A DNA stretch of 64,000 bases, taken from contig DAHXMA010000011.1 of the NCBI GenBank assembly GCA_027365725.1, positions 3,591-67,590 on the forward strand, in the 5' to 3' direction. Shown here piece by piece: positions 2,679 through 51,671 of this stretch (the stretch's first letter is position 1; each line of letters opens with the position of its first letter). The notes beneath the pieces are model-generated. The model did no database searches and had not been told where the DNA came from. It saw only the letters and a list, made by a program, of their open reading frames with translations. Origin of the DNA: Candidatus Micrarchaeota archaeon (GTDB lineage: Archaea; Micrarchaeota; Micrarchaeia; Micrarchaeales; CABMGC01). A program made the translations under genes and the position numbers.

Positions 2679-3854
2679 ATGGATGGCATAAGGATAGCAT
2701 TTTTCACAGACTCGTATCTTCCTGCCGTTGACGGCGTTGTGACATCTATATTGAATTTCAGGGAGGAGCTTAAGCGCCGCGGGCATCGGGTATTTGTGTT
2801 CGCAAGCGCAAAGAGGAATTACCTGCGGAAATATTCCAGCAATGACACTTTCCTGTATCCTGGAATAGAGTTCAAGCCCTATCCGCAGTACAATGTTGCC
2901 ATATTCCCTTACAACTCCGTGTTCAAGCTTGGCGAGCTTGATGTTGACATAGTGCACTCCCAGACCCCGATGGTCATGGGATTTGCGGGGCTTATAGGGG
3001 CAAAGGTGCTGAAATGCAGGACAGTTGGAACGTACCACACAAACGTCACGAACAGGCCGGTTGTAAACGCGTATTACCCCAAAAACAGGCACATGAGCAG
3101 GCTTGCCGCGTCGTACATGACCAAATATATGCGCTTCTTCTACAACAGCTGCGACAGGGTCATATCGCCTTCTGAAACAATTAAAAGGATGCTGATAAGG
3201 AACGGGATAGAGAATGTCGGCGTCGTGCCGAACTGCATAGACATATCGAGATTCAATGCGCAGGTGAACGGAGACTCGATCAGGGAGGCGCTTGGAATAA
3301 GGCCTTCGGAAAAGATGGTGCTGTACCTTGGAAGGATAAGCAAGGAGAAAAGGATAGAGATACTTCTCAAGGCCGCCAGCCTTCTGATGCGAAAGGACGA
3401 ACGCGTGAGGCTGGTGATAGGCGGGACAGGGCCTGCCACTGAGCATTACCGCGCCATCGCGTCTAAGCTCGGCATAAGCCATAAAACAAAATTCATCGGT
3501 TTCGTTAAGGAAAAGTCGCTGCCAGAACTTTACGCGGCCTGCGACGCGTTCTGCCTTCCGTCAACGTTTGAGACGCAGGGAATAGTCGTAATAGAGGCAA
3601 TGGCTATGGGTAAGCCTGTGGTCGGGGCGGATTATATGGCAATAAAGGAGCTGATAAAGCCAGGAGTTAATGGCGAGAAATTCAGGCCCGGGGATTATAC
3701 TGGATGTGCAAAAAAAATAGATAAGGTTTTAAATAATGCCGGACGTTATAGACACGCTGCAATAAGGACTGCAGCAGAATTCTCGAGGGAGAAAGCAACG
3801 GACAGATTACTTGACACGTATAATAGAGTCTTGTCAAATAAGGCGATTAACTGA
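2679..3854 (+). CDS. glycosyltransferase, GT4 (group 1) family
   Basis: N-terminal IAFFTDSYLPAVDGV and C-terminal FCLPSTFETQGIVVIEAMAMGKPVV (E-x7-E region) are typical of GT-B retaining glycosyltransferases. Start is ATG 2679 or GTG 2673. Confidence 0.75.
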   Translation: MDGIRIAFFTDSYLPAVDGVVTSILNFREELKRRGHRVFVFASAKRNYLRKYSSNDTFLYPGIEFKPYPQYNVAIFPYNSVFKLGELDVDIVHSQTPMVMGFAGLIGAKVLKCRTVGTYHTNVTNRPVVNAYYPKNRHMSRLAASYMTKYMRFFYNSCDRVISPSETIKRMLIRNGIENVGVVPNCIDISRFNAQVNGDSIREALGIRPSEKMVLYLGRISKEKRIEILLKAASLLMRKDERVRLVIGGTGPATEHYRAIASKLGISHKTKFIGFVKEKSLPELYAACDAFCLPSTFETQGIVVIEAMAMGKPVVGADYMAIKELIKPGVNGEKFRPGDYTGCAKKIDKVLNNAGRYRHAAIRTAAEFSREKATDRLLDTYNRVLSNKAIN

Positions 3855-26786: not shown

Positions 26787-29700
26787 ATGCCTGACAATCC
26801 GAGCCCGCAGGGCACAAGCCAGACTCCTGGTGGTAACGCTCCGCCAAATGCTGGCCAGCAGCCACCTGAAGGTGGGCAGCAGCCAACGCCATCTGAATCG
26901 CAACAGCCGCAGCAAACGCAGAGTGAAGAGCCTGCTGGAAGCTCAGAAAGCGCAGCGGCAGGCGAAGGGCAGGGAACCGGCAAAGGTCCAGGTGCTTCGC
27001 AGACATGGCAGCAGGTCAGCGGCGAGGACGAGCACGAAGGCGGCAGGTCTAATACACAGGAGGAAGAGGAGGTCATAACCAAAAAGACGCTTCATGATTT
27101 TAACATAGAGAAAGCTTCAGAGAAAACAAGGATAATAATAGCCGCAGTTATAATACTTGCAATAGGGGCAGTCGCATACAAGTTCGTTGTGATGAAACCT
27201 GCAGTTGCAGTGGCGACAACGACAGTGATGCCAACGTCATTTAGCATAAGTTCATGCACTGCGATATCCTCTCCAGGCACATATTATTTGACGTCAAATA
27301 TCAGCACGTCTGCGATAAACGGGCCGTGCATAGACATATCATCAGGCGGGGTAAAGCTTGTAGGCGAAGGATACTCAATAGTTGGTGACGGCCCATTCAC
27401 GATAAATGGCCCCAGCTCGTATGGCATAAGCATAAGTTCAAAGCCGGGCGTGAACGTAACCGATTTGAGCTTGGCGAAGTTCTCTTATGGAGTGTACGTG
27501 AATGGATCGAGCAATGCCTATCTGGGCAATATAACAGTATCTAACTCTACGCTTGCGGGGATATATCTCAAATATTCAAGCGGAATAGAGATTTATGATG
27601 ACCATGTTAAGAGCTCAGGGGTGTACGGCGCAATCAATATTACTGGTGGAGGCAACAACACAGTGCAGGGAAGCGTCACCCAGTACAACTCGTACACAGG
27701 GATATCGATAATTAACTCTTCAGGGAACAGGGTGCTGGGCAGCTCTTCGACAGGGAATCCAATTGATCTCGCATGCTCTGGAAGCGCAGTGTACAGCGAC
27801 GCTAACAGATATTCGAACTCATCGTGCTATGTTAACAGCCACTGCAACTTTGCATACTGCACGCAGCAGAACAACCAGACGGTGATATCTGGCATACACC
27901 TTTACAACCCGATAAGCTCGTGTGGAAGCATAGATTATGGCGGATCGTACGAGCTGTCGCGCGACCTTTCCCTATCCAACTATATGAATGTCACGCTTCC
28001 ACAGGGCACAGGTATACCTTGCCTTCTGATAAACTCGTCTAACGTATACATATATTGCAATGGGCATAGCATCGACAATTCATACTATGGCATACTAAGC
28101 AACAGGGGGGCATACAACATAACACTGGATGGATGCACGATGAGAAACGACACGTATGGCACGTACCTGCAGAATGTGATAAAATTCCGCCTAGCGTCAG
28201 TCTCTGCGCTCGACAATAAATACGGCATATACCTAATGGGCTCTACAGATGGCAACGTCACAAATTCAACTGCGGAAAGGAACTCTTTCGGGATATACCT
28301 GAACGACACCACATATGCAGATGTTGGAGGATTCAGGGTAACGAACAACACATACGGCATATCGATAGACAATTCCACTGACATATATATGAGCAAAGGA
28401 ATAGCCCAGTCCAGCGCTTATGCCGACATATACTGCGCTGCAAACACATACAACTCCACGCTCCTATCGCTGTCGAACAGCCAGTGCACGAGCACAGACT
28501 GCACATGGGCAACAGAATGCCCTGTGAAGAGGCTTCCGAACCTTGTAACGTACCCGGTTACCGGATGCACGACAATAACCGTGCCGGGCCAATACGCACT
28601 GCGCACGAACATACTGTATTCGAAATCTGGCACATGCTTTGACATAAAGTCGGATTTTGTCAGCTTCACATGCACCGCCTCAATGACATCTGTCAGCGGC
28701 GCGGGCACTGCATTTGCAGTCAATAACGCATCAAACGTAAGCATAAGCGGCTGTACGATGTCAGATTTCGCAAATGGCTTTGTGGTCAGCAATGCCACAG
28801 GGACTGTGATAAACGGATCTGTGATAAACTCTCCCGGAACTGGAGTGGTGGTGAATAATAGCAAGTACACTGTAGTCTCAAACAGCGTTGTCTCAGGGTT
28901 CAAGGACAACGGATTCTTATTCGAGGGAAGCAATGAGAGCACAGTGGTATATGACCATTCCAGATCGGCCTCGGTTGGAAGGGGCTTTTCGTTCGGCGGA
29001 GTGTATGGTAGCATGATTGAAAGCGACACAGCCAATTCGAGCGCGTATGGGTTCTATTTCAACGATTCGATGCACAATTACATTTTCAATAATTCGGCAA
29101 TATCGAGCTCGCAGTATGACTACTTCTGCGCGCCTGACTCAGGAGGCATATTCAGCCAATATGGCAGGGTAAATTACGGGGATACAAAGGCAGGATGCAG
29201 GTGGATGGTAGAGGTGCCTTATGCAAATGCGCAGACTTACTGCAGCTACATAAACAGCCCAAGCACGATATCGATGACCCACGACCTTCTATACACATTC
29301 GGGGACAAATGCTTTACGCTGTACTCCAATGCGTCGGTATCGGCTTCCGGCACAACAATAAACTGCAACGGGCACACGGTCGTCGCGACTCATGGAGGCT
29401 CATTCGTCTACTCGTACAATACAAGCTCCGTGACGCTTGAGAACTGCATACTTGTAGGGTTTACGGACCCGGTGGTGTTCGTATCCGGGTCTTCGCCTTC
29501 CGGCATAGACATCCTTAATAACACAATTGCAAATACGGCAGGGAATGCGATATACGTAAGCGGGGCGCAGGTATCTAAAGTGATGTATAATAACCTGACA
29601 AACACTACGGGATATGGCATATCCCTTTACAGGTTCAACAGCAGCGAGGTAACGCTTAACAGGATAACCGACGCGCATGCGGGGATATCGATAAACGAGA

Positions 29701-29816
29701 GCGTATCGACATCCATAACCAACAATACGGTAAATGGGGTATTTTCAGGTGTAAGCGCACAGAATTCGCAGTATGTCACGCTATCTGACAATAACGTAAC
29801 AAACTCGGCAACATGA
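26787..29816 (+). CDS. 1009-aa membrane-anchored parallel beta-helix (PbH1/NosD-like) repeat surface protein
   Basis: A Pro/Gln/Gly/Glu-rich low-complexity N-terminus of about 110 aa, then a single TM (IIIAAVIILAIGAVAYKFVVM). After that there are more than 15 degenerate repeats of about 22 aa of the type N.S.N..YGIYL..S....V..N/C, many Cys residues and many N-x-S/T sequons. Confidence 0.75.
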   Translation: MPDNPSPQGTSQTPGGNAPPNAGQQPPEGGQQPTPSESQQPQQTQSEEPAGSSESAAAGEGQGTGKGPGASQTWQQVSGEDEHEGGRSNTQEEEEVITKKTLHDFNIEKASEKTRIIIAAVIILAIGAVAYKFVVMKPAVAVATTTVMPTSFSISSCTAISSPGTYYLTSNISTSAINGPCIDISSGGVKLVGEGYSIVGDGPFTINGPSSYGISISSKPGVNVTDLSLAKFSYGVYVNGSSNAYLGNITVSNSTLAGIYLKYSSGIEIYDDHVKSSGVYGAINITGGGNNTVQGSVTQYNSYTGISIINSSGNRVLGSSSTGNPIDLACSGSAVYSDANRYSNSSCYVNSHCNFAYCTQQNNQTVISGIHLYNPISSCGSIDYGGSYELSRDLSLSNYMNVTLPQGTGIPCLLINSSNVYIYCNGHSIDNSYYGILSNRGAYNITLDGCTMRNDTYGTYLQNVIKFRLASVSALDNKYGIYLMGSTDGNVTNSTAERNSFGIYLNDTTYADVGGFRVTNNTYGISIDNSTDIYMSKGIAQSSAYADIYCAANTYNSTLLSLSNSQCTSTDCTWATECPVKRLPNLVTYPVTGCTTITVPGQYALRTNILYSKSGTCFDIKSDFVSFTCTASMTSVSGAGTAFAVNNASNVSISGCTMSDFANGFVVSNATGTVINGSVINSPGTGVVVNNSKYTVVSNSVVSGFKDNGFLFEGSNESTVVYDHSRSASVGRGFSFGGVYGSMIESDTANSSAYGFYFNDSMHNYIFNNSAISSSQYDYFCAPDSGGIFSQYGRVNYGDTKAGCRWMVEVPYANAQTYCSYINSPSTISMTHDLLYTFGDKCFTLYSNASVSASGTTINCNGHTVVATHGGSFVYSYNTSSVTLENCILVGFTDPVVFVSGSSPSGIDILNNTIANTAGNAIYVSGAQVSKVMYNNLTNTTGYGISLYRFNSSEVTLNRITDAHAGISINESVSTSITNNTVNGVFSGVSAQNSQYVTLSDNNVTNSAT

Positions 29817-33949: not shown

Positions 33950-34024
33950 AAGCCGGGCGAATTTGGCGATAAGCAGGCTTCGTAAAGCTTTAATATGAAT
34001 TAGCAGCAACATATATCGAAAACC

Positions 34025-34525
34025 ATGAGCAACTTGGAATTAAGGGGACCTACCGGGAGATCTGCGGCCAGAATTGTATTGCCTGGAGATTTAGGAAGCT
34101 TTGATGAGGCTATGTCTTTGGCTGCACGCAGCGGCATGAGGTTGCCTACACTCAAAGATTTCATAAAAGCCCTTGATGAGAACAAAAATTTCCAGGGAGA
34201 GGTGGTTGACAGTTGGTACTGGGTTTCAGATGCAGGAGGACTTAAAATTAAAGGCTTCTGCGGAATAGACTACGGTAAAGGAACGCTTTACGAGTGCGAA
34301 GAATGGAATGTGCTTGAAAAGAAATATGTTGCATATGCAACGTATGGGCCTGGGCCAATAAGCATTAAATTCATGGGAGATGATGGGAAAGCTTTCATTG
34401 CAGCAAACGCAGATGAAGGATTGCGGCATATGCCAATGAATATTGCCCTGGCAGATTACAATTATTTGATTGGAAAGGGCGCGGATTCGATTAGAAGGCT
34501 TAAAAGGAGCATGAGGCACGATTGA
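34025..34525 (+). CDS. paralogue 1 (long form, 166 aa) of an uncharacterised RLPTL-WYW / C-terminal RLKRxMR family
   Basis: FDEAMSLAARSGMRLPTLKDFIKAL...SWYWVSD...GPGPISIKFMGDDGKAFIAANAD...IRRLKRSMRHD. No signal peptide or TM. Confidence 0.7.
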   Translation: MSNLELRGPTGRSAARIVLPGDLGSFDEAMSLAARSGMRLPTLKDFIKALDENKNFQGEVVDSWYWVSDAGGLKIKGFCGIDYGKGTLYECEEWNVLEKKYVAYATYGPGPISIKFMGDDGKAFIAANADEGLRHMPMNIALADYNYLIGKGADSIRRLKRSMRHD

Positions 34526-34527
34526 AC

Positions 34528-34932
34528 ATGGAAACAAAAACTAGCTCAAATGCAGGCCATAACAACGCCTTGAGAATGACCATATTTGTAGAAAAGGAAA
34601 TGACATTTGGTGAGGCGAAGGTGCTTGCAAAGAGTAGGATGGGCCGCTTACCGACACTATCAGAATTCATACGAGTGCTTAAATCTGATCAAGAGCTTTA
34701 CAACAAGGCCGCAGGACATTGGTATTGGCTTGCCGGCGAAGCTGGAGAGGATAGCGTTTCTATTGCGTTTATACCTAGTAAAAATTGGGACAAGGTGCAG
34801 ACCAGAATAAACCCTGTTCCGGGGCTTAAGATTGGAAGTACTGCAAGAGCTGTTGTCGTTGATGATTTTGAAGTAACTCTAAAGGATATACAAATAAAAA
34901 TTGACAAGCTGAAGAAAGCAATGAGGAAATAA
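34528..34932 (+). CDS. paralogue 2 (short form, 134 aa) of the same family
   Basis: FGEAKVLAKSRMGRLPTLSEFIRVLKSDQELYNKAAGHWYWLAGE...IDKLKKAMRK. The ATG lies 3 nt after the paralogue 1 stop. Confidence 0.7.
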   Translation: METKTSSNAGHNNALRMTIFVEKEMTFGEAKVLAKSRMGRLPTLSEFIRVLKSDQELYNKAAGHWYWLAGEAGEDSVSIAFIPSKNWDKVQTRINPVPGLKIGSTARAVVVDDFEVTLKDIQIKIDKLKKAMRK

Positions 34933-35105
34933 AAGCATGGCAAGCATGCCAATCGGAAAGCATTTTGCAAATATGGTGAAGCAGAATGGCCCAAAGCTTG
35001 GAAGAAAAGGCGCAGCAGATTGCACTATTCCGCCAAGAGTGGAGGCGAGACTAGAAGGTAGGCTAGAGGCATATTCTTCATAAGAAGATAATTGAAGTGG
35101 ATTGA

Positions 35106-35294
35106 ATGGAGAGTTTTGAGAAGATAATGTATTATTTGCTATCTGGTTATTTGGTACTGATGCTGTTTCTTTACCCATCCCTTGTAAGGATAACTGTTCA
35201 CCAAGAATTGGTATATACTGCCCTCCCGCTACTTGGGTGGCTAGTCCTGACTGCGTATTACCTTGTGAGATGGTCTGGGCGGAGAAGGGGTTAG
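35106..35294 (+). CDS. 62-aa two-TM mini membrane protein embedded in the paralogue array
   Basis: MESFEKIMYYLLSGYLVLMLFLYPSL...ALPLLGWLVLTAYYLVRWSGRRRG. The stop lies 3 nt before the paralogue 3 ATG. Confidence 0.45.
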   Translation: MESFEKIMYYLLSGYLVLMLFLYPSLVRITVHQELVYTALPLLGWLVLTAYYLVRWSGRRRG

Positions 35295-35297
35295 TTT

Positions 35298-35675
35298 ATG
35301 GAATCTCGTAGAAATTATAAAACTGCTCCTAAGGTAAGGATTGAGTACAGGCGTTTCACTTTTCTAGAAGCTGAATTGTTTGCAAAATCTATAGGTGGCA
35401 GGCTGCCCGGATTTTCGGAGTTCAGAAAATTGCTGTCAATGGATAATGAATTGCACCAGAAAGCCAGGGGGTACACATATTGGGTCATGGTTGGAAAGGA
35501 TATGAGCGTGCCAGGGCAGGCTTACGTTAAAGCGGAGCGGAGTGGCGATATTGTTATAGCTTTGATTAACGCCACAAACAACACCGCGTCCGTAATGACA
35601 ATTGACATACTTGAGGATACTGTTAGTAAAGGGCGTACATCGATTGAAAGGCTTAAGAAGGGCATGAGAAGCTGA
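35298..35675 (+). CDS. paralogue 3 (short form, 125 aa) of the same family
   Basis: FLEAELFAKSIGGRLPGFSEFRKLLSMDNELHQKARGYTYWVMVG...IERLKKGMRS. Confidence 0.7.
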   Translation: MESRRNYKTAPKVRIEYRRFTFLEAELFAKSIGGRLPGFSEFRKLLSMDNELHQKARGYTYWVMVGKDMSVPGQAYVKAERSGDIVIALINATNNTASVMTIDILEDTVSKGRTSIERLKKGMRS

Positions 35676-35676
35676 T

Positions 35677-36189
35677 TTGGTGGTGGAATTTATTAAAAAG
35701 ACTGGCATAGAAAAAGGGCATGTTCCAGTAAAGGTGCTTTACGTCAATGCCTCCTTTGACAGGGCGAATGAAATTGCAATGGAGAACAAAAGCAGGCTGC
35801 CTACGCTTTCGGAGTTCATAGGCGCGCTGCGGGATTCGCCTGAAATGTACAGGAAAGACAAAGGCAGATGGTGGTACTGGCTAGGTGACGCGCCTGGCCT
35901 TTCAATATTTGGAAAATGCAGGATAAACTATGACGCGTGCAGTATAGAGAAGGTTGCGCCTGAAGTGTACGCAGCGCTGCCAAAGAATGAACGAGCTCAT
36001 GCAATAAGTGGAAATGGGCCTATTGCAATTATAGTATACGGGGATGACTCTGACAAGCTTATTAATGTGATAGCTGATTGCCGGATGGAAGAAACAGCTC
36101 GCGTTTCAGTAATTGACACTGACGCAATTATGGCTGAGAGCCGCTCCGCGCTTGGAAGACTCAAAAGGAGCATCAGAAAGAATTATTGA
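35677..36189 (+). CDS. paralogue 4 (long form, 170 aa) of the same family
   Basis: FDRANEIAMENKSRLPTLSEFIGALRDSPEMYRKDKGRWWYWLGD...GNGPIAIIVYGDDSDKLINVIAD...LGRLKRSIRKNY. The TTG start lies 1 nt after the paralogue 3 stop. Confidence 0.7.
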   Translation: MVVEFIKKTGIEKGHVPVKVLYVNASFDRANEIAMENKSRLPTLSEFIGALRDSPEMYRKDKGRWWYWLGDAPGLSIFGKCRINYDACSIEKVAPEVYAALPKNERAHAISGNGPIAIIVYGDDSDKLINVIADCRMEETARVSVIDTDAIMAESRSALGRLKRSIRKNY

Positions 36190-36207: not shown

Positions 36208-36723
36208 CTAGTGCAGGAATGATACATAGAACAGGGTTGCCGCAATCGTCTTTGCGTCAGTTATCCGGTTTGACTTTATCATTTCCAGCAAATTCCCAAT
36301 ACTTAGCTCCCTGGTAGTTATTATCTCACCCGGATCTGGGGAGGGCTTGCCCTTCTTAAGCCCGGTTGCAAGAAAAAACGTAAGCAGCTCGGTATCTAGG
36401 CCTGGGGATTTATACGCAGAGAACATGTGGCTTAGCATGCCTGCGCGGTAGCCCGTTTCCTCTTTCAGCTCCCGCATAGCTGCGCTCTCCATCCGCTCTC
36501 CCTTTTCCGCATGGCCGGCAGGTATTTCGTATACGTATTTTCTTATTGCGGGCCTATACTGCCTTTCGATGACTATTTTCCCTGAAGCTGTTATTGGCAG
36601 TATTGCAACGGAATCCGGTTCCACTATCCTGTAGAAATGCTTTTCGGGACCGCGCTTGCTGAAATCGAACCTCTCAAGTAGGAACATGCCTGTATCGAAT
36701 ATCGTCTCTGGCACTGCTTTCAC
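36208..36723 (-). CDS. NUDIX hydrolase (ADP-ribose pyrophosphatase-like)
   Basis: Nudix box GHAEKGERMESAAMRELKEETGY. Confidence 0.8.
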   Translation of the reverse strand: MKAVPETIFDTGMFLLERFDFSKRGPEKHFYRIVEPDSVAILPITASGKIVIERQYRPAIRKYVYEIPAGHAEKGERMESAAMRELKEETGYRAGMLSHMFSAYKSPGLDTELLTFFLATGLKKGKPSPDPGEIITTRELSIGNLLEMIKSNRITDAKTIAATLFYVSFLH

Positions 36724-37409
36724 TTCTTGTTCTGCTGCTGCTCCTTTCCAAGCGTGTACATCTCCGAAGACAGCTTGAACCTTGATACGCTGTGTGTGAG
36801 AAGCCGCCCATTTCCCTCAAACTTCGCCAGGAAGAGGCCGACACCTCCGAACATCGCAGTGCGTATGTTGTCAACGAACCTGACCTTGTACTTTAGATTG
36901 GAGTCGAATCCTGCAACATGGCCGGGCTCTATCTCTACCGGCTCCTGATCTGATACTGTATGCATTATCACGTCTCCGACCACATGCACAAATACGTTGC
37001 CAGGACCGACTAGCTCCTGCAGGTAAAACCCGGATCCGGCGAACACCGCGGCTCCGAGGTTCATCATCTGTATCGTATATTTCACTGTCGAATCCGCAGC
37101 TAGGAACGAATAGCGCTCTATTGTGAAGCGCTCGCCCGCGCCCAATGTTAGCTGGAATACCTTGCCGGGGAAGACACCTGCCACTGAAACGATTCCTTCC
37201 CCGTCCTTTGGAGTGAATTCGGTGAGCATCGCAGTTGCGCCTGTGGCCTTTCGCTCCAGGGCGCTTATTATCCCGCCTACAAGCTTAGGTGTCATGACTA
37301 TGTTCTGGGACTTGCTTACAAGCATGCCCGAATCCGCATATATCTTCTCTCCCTGCTGAAGGGTTACCTTAAGATGCTGCATGTCCGATCCTATTATCTC
37401 GTATTTCAT
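36720..37409 (-). CDS. AIM24/DUF124 (TIGR00266) family protein
   Basis: MKYEIIGSDMQHLKVTLQQGEKIYADSGMLV... and ...GFYLQELVGPGNVFV... fit the AIM24 family pattern. There are 4-nt overlaps with both neighbours. Confidence 0.7.
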   Translation of the reverse strand: MKYEIIGSDMQHLKVTLQQGEKIYADSGMLVSKSQNIVMTPKLVGGIISALERKATGATAMLTEFTPKDGEGIVSVAGVFPGKVFQLTLGAGERFTIERYSFLAADSTVKYTIQMMNLGAAVFAGSGFYLQELVGPGNVFVHVVGDVIMHTVSDQEPVEIEPGHVAGFDSNLKYKVRFVDNIRTAMFGGVGLFLAKFEGNGRLLTHSVSRFKLSSEMYTLGKEQQQNKK

Positions 37410-39280
37410 TTTCCAACACCTATTATAGCGCTTAGCTCGTCTCCGTCCACGTTAAGTCTGTGCTTTGACATTATCTCCTTTATTATATCCTTTCCGCCTG
37501 ACGATTCAATAGATTTCACTTCCCTGATAAGCTGCTCTTTTGTCATTTTGGCAAGAGAATGCTCTTTTATTATCAGGTCTACTGCGTCGGGTGATTTTGG
37601 GGACAGCCGCAGTATCTCGCCTATTGCTGCCTTTGTTATCTTGCCTGATGCGTATTTATTGAATATTTCAACAAGGACACCCCTGTCGGTTTCTGTAGCG
37701 GCGCCGGAGCGCTCAAGCTCTTTCATCTTCTCGAGCAAGGTTGTTGCAACAACAAGGTTAACGCCCTTGACCTTTGATGTGATGTATTCATATAGCTGCA
37801 GCTTTGGCGACATTGCCATCTGGCCGGCTATCTGCCTGTTGTTGATATCAGAATTGAGACGCTCGATGCGTTCTGATGGATATACTGTCTGCTTTTTTAT
37901 GCTTTCGTAGTATTCCCTGCTTACTCCGATCGGAGTTGAGTCTGTCTCAGGATACATCCTTGAGCCGCCTGGAAGAGGGCGCATGAACCTGGTCGTGCCA
38001 AGTTTTGTGTCTGCAACGGATCTTGTTTCTGGCGGCACTTCGGAAAGCGACATTCTGGCCCTTGACAGAGCAAATTCGATCGCTGCGCTGCACGCGGCCT
38101 TTTCAGCGACTATTATTATGAATGCGTCGCTGCTTAAAGCGCCAATGGCATTATTTATCTCAAGTCGCAGGCTCTCGCCTATCCCATACTTTGACAGGTC
38201 CTCGTCGCTGTGTATTATTCCGTTGACCCCTGCCATCTTTGCATAGTCGCTTATTTCGCTTCCAAGCCTGCGCCCTGGATTTATCTCCTCCCCAAGCAGG
38301 CCTGAGAATCCGCCAAGAAGCGCGGCAAGGGCTATCCCGCCAGAGGACAGTGCGCCTGAGATTACCTTGCCTGATGCCTTTGAGAGCAGGCTGGTGACAT
38401 CCTTTGGCATGCGGGAGACCTCTGCGCCACGGGATTTGAGCTTTTTTTGTATTTCTATGAGCCTTCTCTGGCGCTCGACCTCGTTCTCTATGAAAAGATC
38501 CATCAGCTCGACTTCCTGCAGCCCTTTTATCTCAACGCGCGTGCCGCCAGAAATTGAAACGTTTACATCCTGCCTTATTGTGCCTATGCCACGCATTGCG
38601 CCGCCGGATATCCCGTGTTCGCCTTTCTTCCCAGTCAGCCGCAGCGCAGATCCTATTGCAAGAGCGACTGCCTTTGCCTCTTCAGGGGTTGATATCGAAG
38701 GCGCGGTGTCTATCTCTATCAGCGGAACGCCTATGCGGTCTATGCTGTAAAACACAGTATTGCCTTCTGTGCGTTCTATCCCGCTTGATTCCTCTTCAAG
38801 GAATATTGATGTTATTGGTATGCGCGAATTTCCCGCACTTATTTCGCCGCCGTAGGCGACCATCATGCTCCTTTGGAACGCACTTGGGTCGCTGCCATCT
38901 ACCACTTCCTTGCGCATTGGTTCTATCTCGTCAGGCACAGAAGCCCCGAAAGCGGATGCAAACATTAAAGCAGTTTCTACAGCTTCGCGATTTACCTCGT
39001 GGGGCGGCTCTTCATCTATGTCCACCAGGCATGATGACATGTTGAAAACGCTGTATACAAACTTCCTGCCCCTGCTGCTCTCAAAGCTTGTCGACCTGTC
39101 AATGCGCCCCATCTCACCTGCAACGGCCCTCTGCCTGCGCTCCACCCTTGCTATTACCAGGTCTCCTTGCGCATTGGTGCTGCATTTGCAAAATAGCTTT
39201 TCTGCTGTTGCAAGGCGCTGGTGTATTTCTAGCCCGCACTTGAAACCTAGTTTCGAATAGTATTCCTTGTCGTGCATCAT
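37406..39280 (-). CDS. gatE: Glu-tRNA(Gln) amidotransferase subunit E
   Basis: N-terminus YSKLGFKCGLEIHQRLAT..KLFC, about 624 aa, directly downstream of gatD. Confidence 0.9.
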   Translation of the reverse strand: MMHDKEYYSKLGFKCGLEIHQRLATAEKLFCKCSTNAQGDLVIARVERRQRAVAGEMGRIDRSTSFESSRGRKFVYSVFNMSSCLVDIDEEPPHEVNREAVETALMFASAFGASVPDEIEPMRKEVVDGSDPSAFQRSMMVAYGGEISAGNSRIPITSIFLEEESSGIERTEGNTVFYSIDRIGVPLIEIDTAPSISTPEEAKAVALAIGSALRLTGKKGEHGISGGAMRGIGTIRQDVNVSISGGTRVEIKGLQEVELMDLFIENEVERQRRLIEIQKKLKSRGAEVSRMPKDVTSLLSKASGKVISGALSSGGIALAALLGGFSGLLGEEINPGRRLGSEISDYAKMAGVNGIIHSDEDLSKYGIGESLRLEINNAIGALSSDAFIIIVAEKAACSAAIEFALSRARMSLSEVPPETRSVADTKLGTTRFMRPLPGGSRMYPETDSTPIGVSREYYESIKKQTVYPSERIERLNSDINNRQIAGQMAMSPKLQLYEYITSKVKGVNLVVATTLLEKMKELERSGAATETDRGVLVEIFNKYASGKITKAAIGEILRLSPKSPDAVDLIIKEHSLAKMTKEQLIREVKSIESSGGKDIIKEIMSKHRLNVDGDELSAIIGVGK

Positions 39281-39281
39281 A

Positions 39282-40628
39282 TTACCCTACAGGGAAATCG
39301 AATTCGGTTCGTGCGGTTATCTCGCCTGCGATATTTGTTGTGAGCATCTTTGCCGCCCCTTCCATGCCGTAGTTTCCTATCAGGAATCCGAGCTTGACAT
39401 ATGCAACCTCTGGAAGCATGTCCTCGCAGTGTACAGCTCCGGCATCGCTGAGCAGCCTCAGGTTCCTATACACGCTCTTATTTGCCCTTCCGTAAAGGCA
39501 TTGGGATGTTATTCCCACCACAACACCAGAATCTACTGCCGCCTTTACCCCGCCAATCCATGACAGCCCTGCTATGCTTGGGGCGCTTGGGACATGGCCA
39601 AGCCCCGTGCCCTCTATTATAATTCCCTTGTAGCCCTTATTCACGTAGTAGTCGATAATGGCCGGGTCGGAGTTGGGATACGCCTTAAGCAGTGCCACTT
39701 TTGGCTCGAACCCGGTTATCGCTGATACCCTGTCCTTAGGCTTGTCTAAGGCGTGGCGATATTCGCTTATGTACTCTATCATCCCGTGCTCGTCTATTGT
39801 GCATATTGGGTGGTTGTTTACAGGCTTAAATGCATCCCTGCGCGACGTATGCATCTTTCTTGCCTTCGTGCCGCGTATCAGGTTGTTCTTGTCGTCAGAG
39901 CTGCTGCTGTGCATGCATATTGACACTTCTGCCACATCAGAGCGGGTTGCCGCTATGCATGAACATATGAGATTATAGAAGGCATCGCTTGATCCCCTGT
40001 CGCTGCTTCGCTGCGAGCCTGTTATCACAACCGGTGAGTTTAATCCCTTTAGCATGAATGAGAGCGCGGCTGAAGTGTAGTGCATTGTGTCTGTTCCGTG
40101 GGTTATGACAACCCCGCGGGCGCCGCCATTAAGCGCCTTGGCCGTTTCTTCTGCGATCTTTGCCCATTCGATGTATGTCATGTCTTCGCTGGCTATGCTC
40201 ATCAGGTTGCTTATATTTACGTTGGCTATTCCGCCAAGTTCTGGGACTTCGTGAAGCAGTTCCTCTGGCTTGGTAAGCATGTACACCCCGCCAGTAGAAT
40301 AGTCGACCTTGCTGCCTATGGTGCCGCCAGTGTATATCATGCTTATTTTTGGGAGGCCTGGGCCCTGCGCCACTCCGGAAGAGGGGAATGAGAACTCCGG
40401 CTTTCCGGAAGCAGTTTTCTCTATCCTCATTCCGGCCCTGTATCTGATTCCTATATTGTACCCGTCCTTGCGCTTTATTATTAGTATGCTGCTGTCACCT
40501 GCGCCAGACCTTGGCATGAGTATCCCCTCCTGAAAGTCACTACCTAAGGCTACAGATATGCTGTCGCCAACATTTATGCCGAGCTTTGACAGAATGCCCT
40601 GTACCTCTGCCGAATACATGAATAACAT
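39282..40628 (-). CDS. gatD: Glu-tRNA(Gln) amidotransferase subunit D (asparaginase-like)
   Basis: Asparaginase motifs TGGTIGS, VITHGTDTM and IIEGTGLGHV. About 448 aa. Confidence 0.9.
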   Translation of the reverse strand: MLFMYSAEVQGILSKLGINVGDSISVALGSDFQEGILMPRSGAGDSSILIIKRKDGYNIGIRYRAGMRIEKTASGKPEFSFPSSGVAQGPGLPKISMIYTGGTIGSKVDYSTGGVYMLTKPEELLHEVPELGGIANVNISNLMSIASEDMTYIEWAKIAEETAKALNGGARGVVITHGTDTMHYTSAALSFMLKGLNSPVVITGSQRSSDRGSSDAFYNLICSCIAATRSDVAEVSICMHSSSSDDKNNLIRGTKARKMHTSRRDAFKPVNNHPICTIDEHGMIEYISEYRHALDKPKDRVSAITGFEPKVALLKAYPNSDPAIIDYYVNKGYKGIIIEGTGLGHVPSAPSIAGLSWIGGVKAAVDSGVVVGITSQCLYGRANKSVYRNLRLLSDAGAVHCEDMLPEVAYVKLGFLIGNYGMEGAAKMLTTNIAGEITARTEFDFPVG

Positions 40629-50966: not shown

Positions 50967-51671
50967 ATGGATTACCGGGAATTCACAGTCGTGCTTCCTA
51001 CGCTTAATGAGGAAAAGACAATAGGCGTGCTGATACGCAGGCTACTTGGGGAATACAAGGGCATAAGCGTTTTTGTGGCTGACGACGGCTCAAAGGACAG
51101 GACCAAAGACGTGGTTACTGCAATATCTAAGAGGAACGGGAAGGTCAGGTTCATTGATAGGAGCAGGGCGGGGCTTGAAAAGGGGCTTAGCGCAAGCGCA
51201 ATAGACGGAATATTGGGAAGCAAAACAAGGTTCGCAATCGTGATGGACGCTGATCTTCAGCATCCGCCTGAAGTTGTGGGAAGGCTCGCTCGCAGGCTGT
51301 CGCAGGGATGCAAGATCTCGGTAGCGGTAAGGGCCACAGTCAAGGGTTGGGAGCTGCACAGAAAGCTCATCTCAAAGGCTCTCATATCGATAGGGTACGC
51401 GATGCTCATGGCAACTGGAAAGAGCAGGTGCGGCGACATATTCTCAGGGTTTTTCGGAGTTGAGCGGAAGCTTTTCGAACAGACATACCACAAAAACAGG
51501 CGCAGGTTTGTCGGAGGCGGGTACAAGATCCTGTATGACCTTCTTAAATGCATAGCAAACGGCAGTGTGGTTATTGGGGAGGTGCCTTACTCGTTCGGAG
51601 TCAGGGAGTATGGGAAGTCAAAGGCAGGGCTCAGGCAGGGCCTTTACCTGTTCAAGTCCTTCCTTACGTGA
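50967..51671 (+). CDS. GT2 glycosyltransferase (dolichyl-phosphate glucose/mannose synthase-like)
   Basis: FTVVLPTLNEEKTIGVLI, FVADDGSKDRT, DxD motif MDADLQHPPE. Confidence 0.75.
   Translation: MDYREFTVVLPTLNEEKTIGVLIRRLLGEYKGISVFVADDGSKDRTKDVVTAISKRNGKVRFIDRSRAGLEKGLSASAIDGILGSKTRFAIVMDADLQHPPEVVGRLARRLSQGCKISVAVRATVKGWELHRKLISKALISIGYAMLMATGKSRCGDIFSGFFGVERKLFEQTYHKNRRRFVGGGYKILYDLLKCIANGSVVIGEVPYSFGVREYGKSKAGLRQGLYLFKSFLT

Follow-up and report, generated by a model that had tools for sequence, protein, structure and literature searches.

We describe here a gene array at positions 34025-36189 of a 64,000-nucleotide (nt) stretch of DNA, hereafter the window, from a Candidatus Micrarchaeota archaeon (GenBank assembly GCA_027365725.1, contig DAHXMA010000011.1). 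Four of its co-directional open reading frames (ORFs), here named A to D (Table 1), encode genuine, anciently diverged paralogues, and a further gene, tm2, lies among them. The four proteins belong to an uncurated family of single-domain proteins of about 165 amino acids (aa), which on present sequence searches appears to be known only from Micrarchaeota-type genomes of the DPANN archaea, and modelling predicts for them a strongly derived C-type-lectin-like fold whose closest sequence profile is DUF1566/Lcl_C. This classification is much firmer than the functional reading, in which we place slightly more belief than doubt: intracellular, nonenzymatic lectin-fold binding modules that act as hetero-assemblies.

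Coding evidence and paralogy

A to D are real genes, because orthologues in a sister lineage give Nei-Gojobori ratios of nonsynonymous to synonymous substitution rates (dN/dS) of 0.30 for A, 0.33 for B, 0.58 for C, and 0.29 for D. An indexed search of 5.8 billion proteins returned eight proteins only, namely, the four of the window and one diverged orthologue of each. These orthologues (77%, 73%, and 80% identical for A, C, and D, respectively) occupy the same position on contigs of several metagenomes, with a YgjP-like (DUF45) gene on one side and a NUDIX-AIM24-GatE/D block on the other. The A protein is identical in two assemblies, and the window also matches the metagenome-assembled genome (MAG) GCA_027364475.1.

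The four genes are under purifying selection yet evolve much faster than their neighbors, with dN values of 0.10 to 0.18 against 0.004 to 0.046 for the flanking genes, i.e., 3- to 30-fold higher. By region, the folded parts of A and D are constrained (dN/dS, 0.19 to 0.39), B joins a scaffold at 0.09 to a C-terminal half at 1.0 (neutral), and C is relaxed throughout (0.5 to 0.8). The array is not enriched in differences from a near-identical strain (L001), containing 3 of the 48 found over 9 kb. Synonymous divergence (dS) from the sister lineage reaches 0.24 to 0.56 in parts of the array (0.40 to 0.56 in A and B) against 0.15 to 0.23 in the flanks, which may reflect older alleles, recombination involving a more distant donor, or a weaker constraint on codons.

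Paralogy, which the initial annotation had proposed from shared motifs, is borne out by BLASTP (database size, 1e6), with E values of 2e-19 for A-D, 2e-14 for B-C, 1e-7 for B-D, and 4e-5 for A-B. The pairs C-D (0.009) and A-C (~2) are weak by themselves, and C is therefore tied to the group through B. A MAFFT alignment of the four proteins has the invariant columns F26, A29, A33, R39-L40-P41, F46, L50, Y65-W66, and L159-K160..R164; A and D additionally share a G[PN]GPI..GDD core, and the basic RLK[RK]x[MI]R tail was also found. The copies had been judged to be old rather than recently duplicated, and this agrees with the presence of a separate sister-lineage orthologue for each and with the deep branching of A, D, and the pair B and C in the family tree. 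A higher AT content than that of the flanks, noted earlier by eye, was confirmed by measurement: GC contents are 0.41 to 0.47 in the array against 0.51 to 0.54 in the flanks, and values at third codon positions (GC3) are 0.39 to 0.48 against 0.53 to 0.66, so that the AT-richness extends to synonymous sites.

Predicted fold and the family

No significant match to A to D or their profiles was found in Pfam, NCBIfam, PHROGs, PADLOC, or PDB sequences, in keeping with the earlier description of the family as unassigned. The fold was approached through D, which was modelled with AlphaFold2. With eight sequences, the mean predicted local distance difference test score (pLDDT) was 76; with a 63-sequence alignment, it was 92.3, with a predicted TM score (pTM) of 0.84 and all five models at 89.6 or above. 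Foldseek searches of the PDB with both models returned C-type-lectin-like domains (CTLDs) for all of the top 50 matches, including langerin, CLEC9A, LOX-1, TC14, and NKR-P1B (best E value, 2.5e-3; probabilities, 0.82 to 0.99). Nearly all of the named top matches in the viral library BFVD were likewise CTLDs, among them lectins of herpesviruses and poxviruses and a DUF1566 protein of a phage. Against solved CTLDs, TM scores are only 0.35 to 0.5, with root mean square deviations of 7 to 9 Å; the fold assignment therefore depends on consistent but weak matches together with the profile evidence, and the fold is to be regarded as strongly derived.

The profile evidence comes from two sources. In hhalign, the family profile aligned with four bona fide Lcl_C domains, which were distinct from the stretches matched by the family profile, with 92% probability (E = 6e-7) over 66 columns covering the RLPT turn, helix 1, helix 2, the W-strand, and the xIDYxxG hairpin. 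In an exhaustive HMMER search, described below, the weak tail of matches consisted of multidomain Lcl_C/DUF1566, Lectin_C, FGE-sulfatase, Xlink, and Intimin_C proteins, all assigned by Pfam to the C-type lectin clan, at E values of 5e-7 to 5e-4. The order of secondary-structure elements in the D model agrees with the CTLD topology (strand 1, helix 1, helix 2, a WIGL-type strand 2, and strands 3 to 5, with the N- and C-terminal strands paired), an agreement to be read with the low TM scores in mind. The RLPT..EF...WYW signature had been likened to the start of the C-type-lectin-like fold of FGE-sulfatase and DUF1566 domains, and the structural matches and both kinds of profile evidence point the same way.

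Lcl_C/DUF1566 offers the best profile-profile match and the nearest known counterpart. The C-terminal domain of Lcl is a CTLD free of disulfides and of the canonical motifs, which uses a basic surface to bind sulfated polyanions and forms a homotrimer (PMC11162425). The array proteins are like it in their CTLD-like character and in having neither disulfides nor Ca2+/carbohydrate motifs, and basic surface residues could likewise bind a polyanion. They differ in that no family member reaches the Pfam model (PF07603; gathering score, 34.9 bits), with no match among A to D or 63 relatives; in standing alone without an export signal, DUF1566 domains being secreted or surface attached and usually parts of larger proteins; and in having a C-terminal helix and, between the hairpin and the final strand, some 55 more residues.

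Animal CTLDs (Lectin_C; langerin, LOX-1, CLEC9A, and NKR-P1B) supply all of the top structural matches and share the sequence logic A-x3-A...G-x-L-x-x-I/L...E-x-x-F/L followed by a WIGL-like (WYWL) strand. Unlike them, the array proteins are archaeal and presumably cytoplasmic; A to D contain no EPN/QPD or WND motif for Ca2+ and sugar and no conserved disulfide cysteines (B and C are entirely without cysteine), and Lectin_C (PF00059) gave no match at E values of ≤1 for A to D and none among 63 family members.

B and C are without about 34 residues of D, comprising one hairpin strand, the helix at residues 94 to 99, and two strands. By alignment, these residues appear to correspond to the long-loop region by which canonical CTLDs differ from compact ones, and in this respect B and C are like the compact Link/Xlink module and the intimin/invasin C-terminal domain; Xlink and Intimin_C are among the Pfam matches on the profile-tail proteins. 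The likeness, seen in sequence alone, differs in origin, since B and C arose by deletion inside the family and are sister copies within the tail-bearing subclade, not directly related to Link or intimin.

The HMMER search, with an eight-sequence profile against 1.84 billion cluster representatives, yielded 103 proteins at E values of ≤1e-3 and 40 at ≤1e-10; a word-indexed homologue search with a broad profile added little beyond the lineage's own eight proteins. Outside this lineage, 76 of the matches are single-domain proteins of 140 to 215 aa with the same layout. The family, defined by alignment A3, is marked by A33, RLPTLxEF, L50, (W)YW, and a C-terminal L-[KR], and all four array proteins are matched by its hidden Markov model (HMM) (Table 1). 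Elements conserved family-wide (D numbering) are A33, (G)RLPTLxEFI, L50, G62, (W)YWL, G78-x-C-x-I-D-Y-E-K-G, W97, LP, RA, GxGP, ARVAxV, and the C-terminal L161; the scaffold residues conserved across the family are A33, L40, E45, F46, L50, and W67.

A genome scan with one exact peptide pattern placed a relative in only two species-representative genomes, and both are labelled Candidatus Micrarchaeota. In two MAGs of the same assembly series (L019 and L022), a Cdc6-aIF1A-aIF2β block is 58 to 75% identical to that of one of these two contigs, and these MAGs and the window have in common a pyrophosphatase (59%) and the tm2 family. By themselves, these findings make a Micrarchaeota (DPANN) origin likely, if indirectly. 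A viral or plasmid origin was considered and rejected, as IMG/VR, the INPHARED phages, and PLSDB contain no relatives of the family.

The lectin-fold genes are accessory, as seen from their fast evolution, low GC3, different loci in related genomes, and repeated tandem duplication. In GCA_964878345.1 (L015), the CTP synthase is 79.5% identical to that of the window and three further genes are syntenic with window positions 47 to 53 kb. In that genome, two full-length paralogues of 173 and 184 aa form a coupled pair, overlapping by 4 nt (L015 4134-5233), between the CTP synthase and glycosyltransferase (GT2) genes, which in the window converge and overlap at 51644-51671 with nothing between them; this junction marks an insertion or deletion site for the family. 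Coupled tandem pairs occur in L015 to L018 and in L013, the last with three tandem matches in 1.2 kb, and two proteins, P0009 (319 aa) and P0030 (328 aa), are fusions of two complete modules, the first module of P0009 being without the C-terminal helix. The other family loci have a GC3 below that of most neighboring genes and are flanked by unrelated housekeeping genes.

A cytoplasmic location is presumed for A to D because export signals are missing: no signal peptide, transmembrane segment, or pilin-like N terminus was found in them, and the maximum Kyte-Doolittle mean over 19 residues is 0.59 to 1.08, against 1.76 for tm2. A transmembrane-like hydrophobic stretch is present in only 4 of the 76 relatives. 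The initial annotation had considered the proteins shorter than FGE or DUF1566 domains and cytoplasmic, which fits their stand-alone length and the lack of export signals and conserved cysteines.

The basic tail had been put forward as a docking or membrane-targeting peptide. The tail itself stands, but it is restricted: RLK[RK] was found in 20 of the 92 single-domain representatives, 12 of them among the 84 from outside this lineage, where the consensus is A-L-x-R-L-K-R-[GN]-[LI]-[PR]. The tail-bearing members form one subclade with A, D, and the sister pair B and C as deep branches in a rough neighbor-joining tree. In D, it forms part of a confidently predicted helix (residues 147 to 167; hydrophobic moment, 0.53), and L161 is conserved in 83% of the family. 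We infer from the model that the helix is part of the fold, with the stripe L158, L161, and I165 packed and the Arg/Lys side exposed, rather than a free peptide. ESCRT-III MIM1 motifs have the consensus (D/E)xxLxxRLxxL(K/R); a MIM1-like identity of the tail was rejected, since, read by eye, RLKRG[LI] has Gly or Asn at the MIM1 Leu position.

Array layout, tm2, and neighboring genes

The array had been described as five to six co-directional ORFs with gaps of 1 to 5 nt. The coordinates and tight junctions were confirmed (Table 1), but because 173 nt separate B from tm2, the array is two tightly coupled groups, A-B and tm2-C-D, and not a single unbroken chain. At the A/B junction, the stop codon of A (34525) is followed after 2 nt by the ATG of B (34528), as read from the sequence, and an alternative TTG start at 34522 overlaps the A stop. 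The stop codon of tm2 (35294) is followed after 3 nt by the ATG of C (35298). The stop codon of C (35675) precedes a D start at TTG 35677 or GTG 35680, leaving 1 to 4 nt; the GTG is the more likely start, because it lines up with the sister lineage's ATG. A TATA-like sequence, TTTAATAT, lies within the 75-nt gap that follows the YgjP-like gene, some 33 nt ahead of the start codon of A, and a promoter there, if it is one, could make the A transcript near-leaderless.

Table 1. Features of the array and their positions in the window
Feature	Position	Strand	Description	Basis
Possible archaeal TATA box TTTAATAT	33989-33996	+	Putative promoter element	Read from sequence; promoter role inferred
Gene A	34025-34525	+	166 aa; full-length: scaffold, long-loop region, basic C-terminal helix	ORF; family HMM E = 1e-43
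Gene B	34528-34932	+	134 aa; compact form, ~34 long-loop-region residues fewer	ORF, alignment; family HMM E = 2e-25
Spacer B to tm2	34933-35105		173 nt; contains 48-aa ORF 34937-35083 and part of antisense 99-aa ORF 34879-35178	
Gene tm2	35106-35294	+	62 aa; two transmembrane segments, basic C terminus; separate small-membrane-protein family	
Gene C	35298-35675	+	125 aa; compact form, sister paralogue of B	Family HMM E = 3e-24
Gene D	35680-36189	+	169 aa (170 aa if TTG 35677); full-length, modelled copy	Family HMM E = 4e-55
D residues 17-68, conserved scaffold	35728-35883	+	Strand 1, helix 1, RLPT, helix 2, WYW strand; aligned with DUF1566 by hhalign	
D residues 147-167, C-terminal amphipathic basic helix, ...SALGRLKRSIRK	36118-36180	+	Predicted helix	AlphaFold2 helix pLDDT ~95

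tm2 is a real gene, of a family independent of the lectin-fold genes. It exists in four very divergent versions, all with an intact ORF and two hydrophobic segments; the second segment is nearly invariant (ALPxLGWLVLTAYYLVRWSG), and the N-terminal half is hypervariable. An indexed search gave 65 clusters of relatives of 64 to 106 aa, and across nine homologues the variation at codon positions 1, 2, and 3 of the plus frame is 0.22, 0.17, and 0.32, respectively. No lectin-fold gene was found near the tm2 homologues of L019 to L027, and no tm2 was found near the lectin-fold genes of L011 to L018. The earlier view of an embedded two-transmembrane ORF thus holds insofar as the gene is real; as part of the array it does not, the gene being of a separate family and unlinked to lectin-fold genes elsewhere. 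Its sequence context marks tm2 as an apparent neighbor from a different family and not a conserved component.

The variation in tm2 has a distinctive pattern. Similarity to a contig of a 99.8%-identical strain (L002) ends at 35048, after which the two have different N-terminal halves of tm2 (window 35048-35220, L002 11024-11353). At least four N-terminal types occur in different genomes with the same second transmembrane segment (window, L019, and L022; L002 and L025; L003 and L027; L004 and L025b), the versions of L003 and L004 lying at 2941-3162 and 2445-2654, respectively. By sequence, this polymorphism looks like cassette exchange. On the sister-lineage contig L003 (3162-3745, minus strand), tm2 is followed by a Thr/Pro-repeat frame of more than 300 codons (...PTTTIQPTTTIQ...) that runs off the contig end and replaces C and D; this arrangement is either real structural variation or a chimeric assembly.

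Elsewhere, tm2 has other neighbors. In L019 to L024 (3086-4240), a homologue lies about 190 nt downstream of a lytic transglycosylase gene (SLT; PF01464), an order that recalls an endolysin-holin pair and is unusual in an archaeon; the 1-kb uncalled gap after the L019 pair contains the archaeal signal recognition particle RNA (Rfam RF01857, L019 4447-4709). In L025 (3763-8177) and L026 (1273-5687), tandem tm2 paralogues of 75 and 74 aa are followed by a DUF4145 gene, a gene for an AAA_22-like 593-aa protein, and a second DUF4145 gene, a neighborhood that looks like a defense island.

The spacer between B and tm2 is treated as noncoding. A 48-aa ORF suggested there by the initial annotation has no coding signal, dN/dS values for it and for the antisense 99-aa ORF being 0.74 to 1.9. 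The antisense frame, which also runs opposite tm2, is open in every locus examined (L002, L003, L004, L019, L022, L025, and L027, besides the window) and would encode an S/T/P/Q/N-rich peptide; it was rejected as a gene and taken as a shadow ORF, since the codon-position pattern is the reverse of that expected for antisense coding. An RNA gene or structured element was also rejected, the spacer having no Rfam match at E values of ≤1 and an ordinary folding energy (z = -0.87).

The upstream YgjP-like (DUF45) gene had been suspected of a link to the array; other family loci are without it. Downstream, on the minus strand (36208-40628), NUDIX, AIM24, and GatE overlap by 4 nt at each junction (36720-36723 and 37406-37409), and GatD begins 1 nt after GatE; AIM24 is extremely conserved relative to the sister lineage (dN/dS, 0.02). 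Further upstream, a 1009-aa ORF (26787-29816, plus strand) probably encodes a large surface protein, since on contig L002, which is nearly identical, it has repeated NosD/Beta_helix Pfam matches.

Functional reading and alternatives

We propose that A to D act as intracellular, nonenzymatic binding modules. Strand 1, helix 1, the RLPT turn, helix 2, and the WYW strand, which make up the conserved N-terminal half, would be a scaffold, and the C-terminal half, which is variable between paralogues, partly lost in B and C, and neutral in B, would provide the recognition surface. The C-terminal helix would pack on the domain and display a strip of Arg and Lys residues that could contact a polyanion or a partner protein. 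By analogy with Lcl, such contact is plausible for the tail-bearing subclade and not for the whole family. Coupled adjacent copies would be made in matched amounts and would probably form joint assemblies, as judged from the coupled translation and from the genomes in which two modules are fused.

Several observations weigh against this proposal. The TM scores and deviations from solved CTLDs are poor, and the family loci examined have no conserved gene neighborhood indicating a pathway. Hetero-assembly is suggested by the fusions and the coupling alone. Cys80, Asp83, and Tyr84 are 73 to 82% conserved in full-length members, where they may form a small-molecule or metal site. Most members have no basic tail, a third of tails are not basic, and the family median isoelectric point is 7.9, close to neutral; polyanion binding is therefore not a general function of the family. 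The taxonomic range is also under-sampled, one exact peptide pattern leading to two genome loci and one metagenome locus.

Of the other readings, the best placed makes the array and tm2 a conflict or symbiosis module, in which the lectin-fold proteins sense viral or host-derived molecules and tm2 is a membrane-permeabilizing effector. Fast evolution, low GC3, and changing genomic location would suit such a role, as would the swapping of tm2 N-terminal cassettes between strains with 99.8%-identical flanks and the placement of tm2 relatives beside DUF4145/AAA_22 genes (L025 and L026) or after an SLT gene (L019 to L024). Conflict systems with cytoplasmic C-type-lectin sensors are known (PMC10907252), and the reading has a likeness in spirit to the C-type-lectin antigen sensors of bacterial STAND conflict systems. 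PADLOC, however, gave no significant match for any lectin-fold copy and only a marginal "2TM effector" match for tm2 (E = 0.049); tm2 and lectin-fold genes are never neighbors outside this lineage; and no NTPase, nuclease, or protease effector was found nearby. A and D show ordinary purifying selection and no hint of positive selection, strain single-nucleotide polymorphisms (SNPs) are not enriched in the array, and phage, plasmid, and IMG/VR records hold no relatives. We consider a conflict module unlikely. The same low expectation applies to a broader form of the idea, in which a panel of lectin-fold proteins, possibly with the polymorphic tm2, would be an unrecognized DPANN intracellular recognition system for viral or host-derived molecules, germline encoded and diversified by duplication, loop deletion, and cassette exchange without a diversity-generating retroelement (DGR).

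DGRs offer a comparison for small lectin-fold proteins in such genomes. AvpA, a DGR variable protein of DPANN archaea, is a small stand-alone C-type-lectin fold with variation in its C-terminal part (PMC5006420), and the array proteins are like it, and like Mtd and TvpA of phage and bacteria, in these respects. They differ in having no detected sequence similarity to AvpA and in diversifying by duplication and ordinary substitution rather than retro-mutagenesis; AvpA-type proteins are a functional analogy only. At this locus, a DGR target was rejected: the 64-kb window contains no direct repeat of ≥40 nt that could be a template/variable repeat pair, the three strain SNPs in the array are not clustered, and no RVT domain occurs in the 24 kb annotated around the locus, the remaining window not having been scanned for reverse transcriptase.

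Micrarchaeota depend on host contact, and CTLDs are classic surface recognition domains, so a further reading takes A to D as adhesins or host-contact lectins of an episymbiotic DPANN cell, exported by a nonclassical route. DUF1566/Lcl_C, their nearest family by sequence, is both extracellular and adhesive (PMC11162425). Opposed to this are the lack of any signal peptide, transmembrane segment, or pilin-like N terminus in A to D and the rarity of transmembrane-like stretches among the relatives; cysteines for extracellular stabilization and adjacent secretion genes are also missing. Export seems more improbable than a conflict role. An FGE-like enzyme, very improbable in our judgment, is hinted at by the moderately conserved Cys80/Asp83/Tyr84 of full-length members and by faint FGE-sulfatase (PF03781) matches in 3 of 63 members (best E value, 0.015), but these fall far under the gathering score. 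B and C have no cysteine that could form the catalytic pair and are without the region of the strands that partner C80 to Y84, the proteins have about 165 aa against the 255 positions of the FGE-sulfatase profile, and no substrate or partner genes lie nearby. That the ORFs are spurious or decaying pseudogene remnants is barely credible: they are without annotation in any library, have low GC, and show relaxed constraint in C and in the C-terminal half of B, but several lineages keep all four frames open at dN/dS values well under 1, D gives a confident AlphaFold model, and about 100 homologous clusters exist, so that this reading is effectively refuted for A, B, and D, and decay may hold for C.

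CTLDs are among the most widely reused recognition folds. To our knowledge, nearly all of those described in prokaryotes are secreted or surface modules, enzymes (FGE and EgtB), or targets of retroelement hypermutation. The genes described here represent a new, narrowly distributed family within this known fold superfamily, and not a new kind of system or principle: a compact, disulfide-free, stand-alone CTLD with no export signal, tandem-duplicated, sometimes fused, and with natural loop-deleted forms. With proteins of 125 to 170 aa and a confident model, it offers a small, experimentally tractable way to approach organisms that cannot be cultivated by themselves. If the ligand proves to be host or virus derived, the family would bear on how DPANN archaea recognize their partners or parasites.

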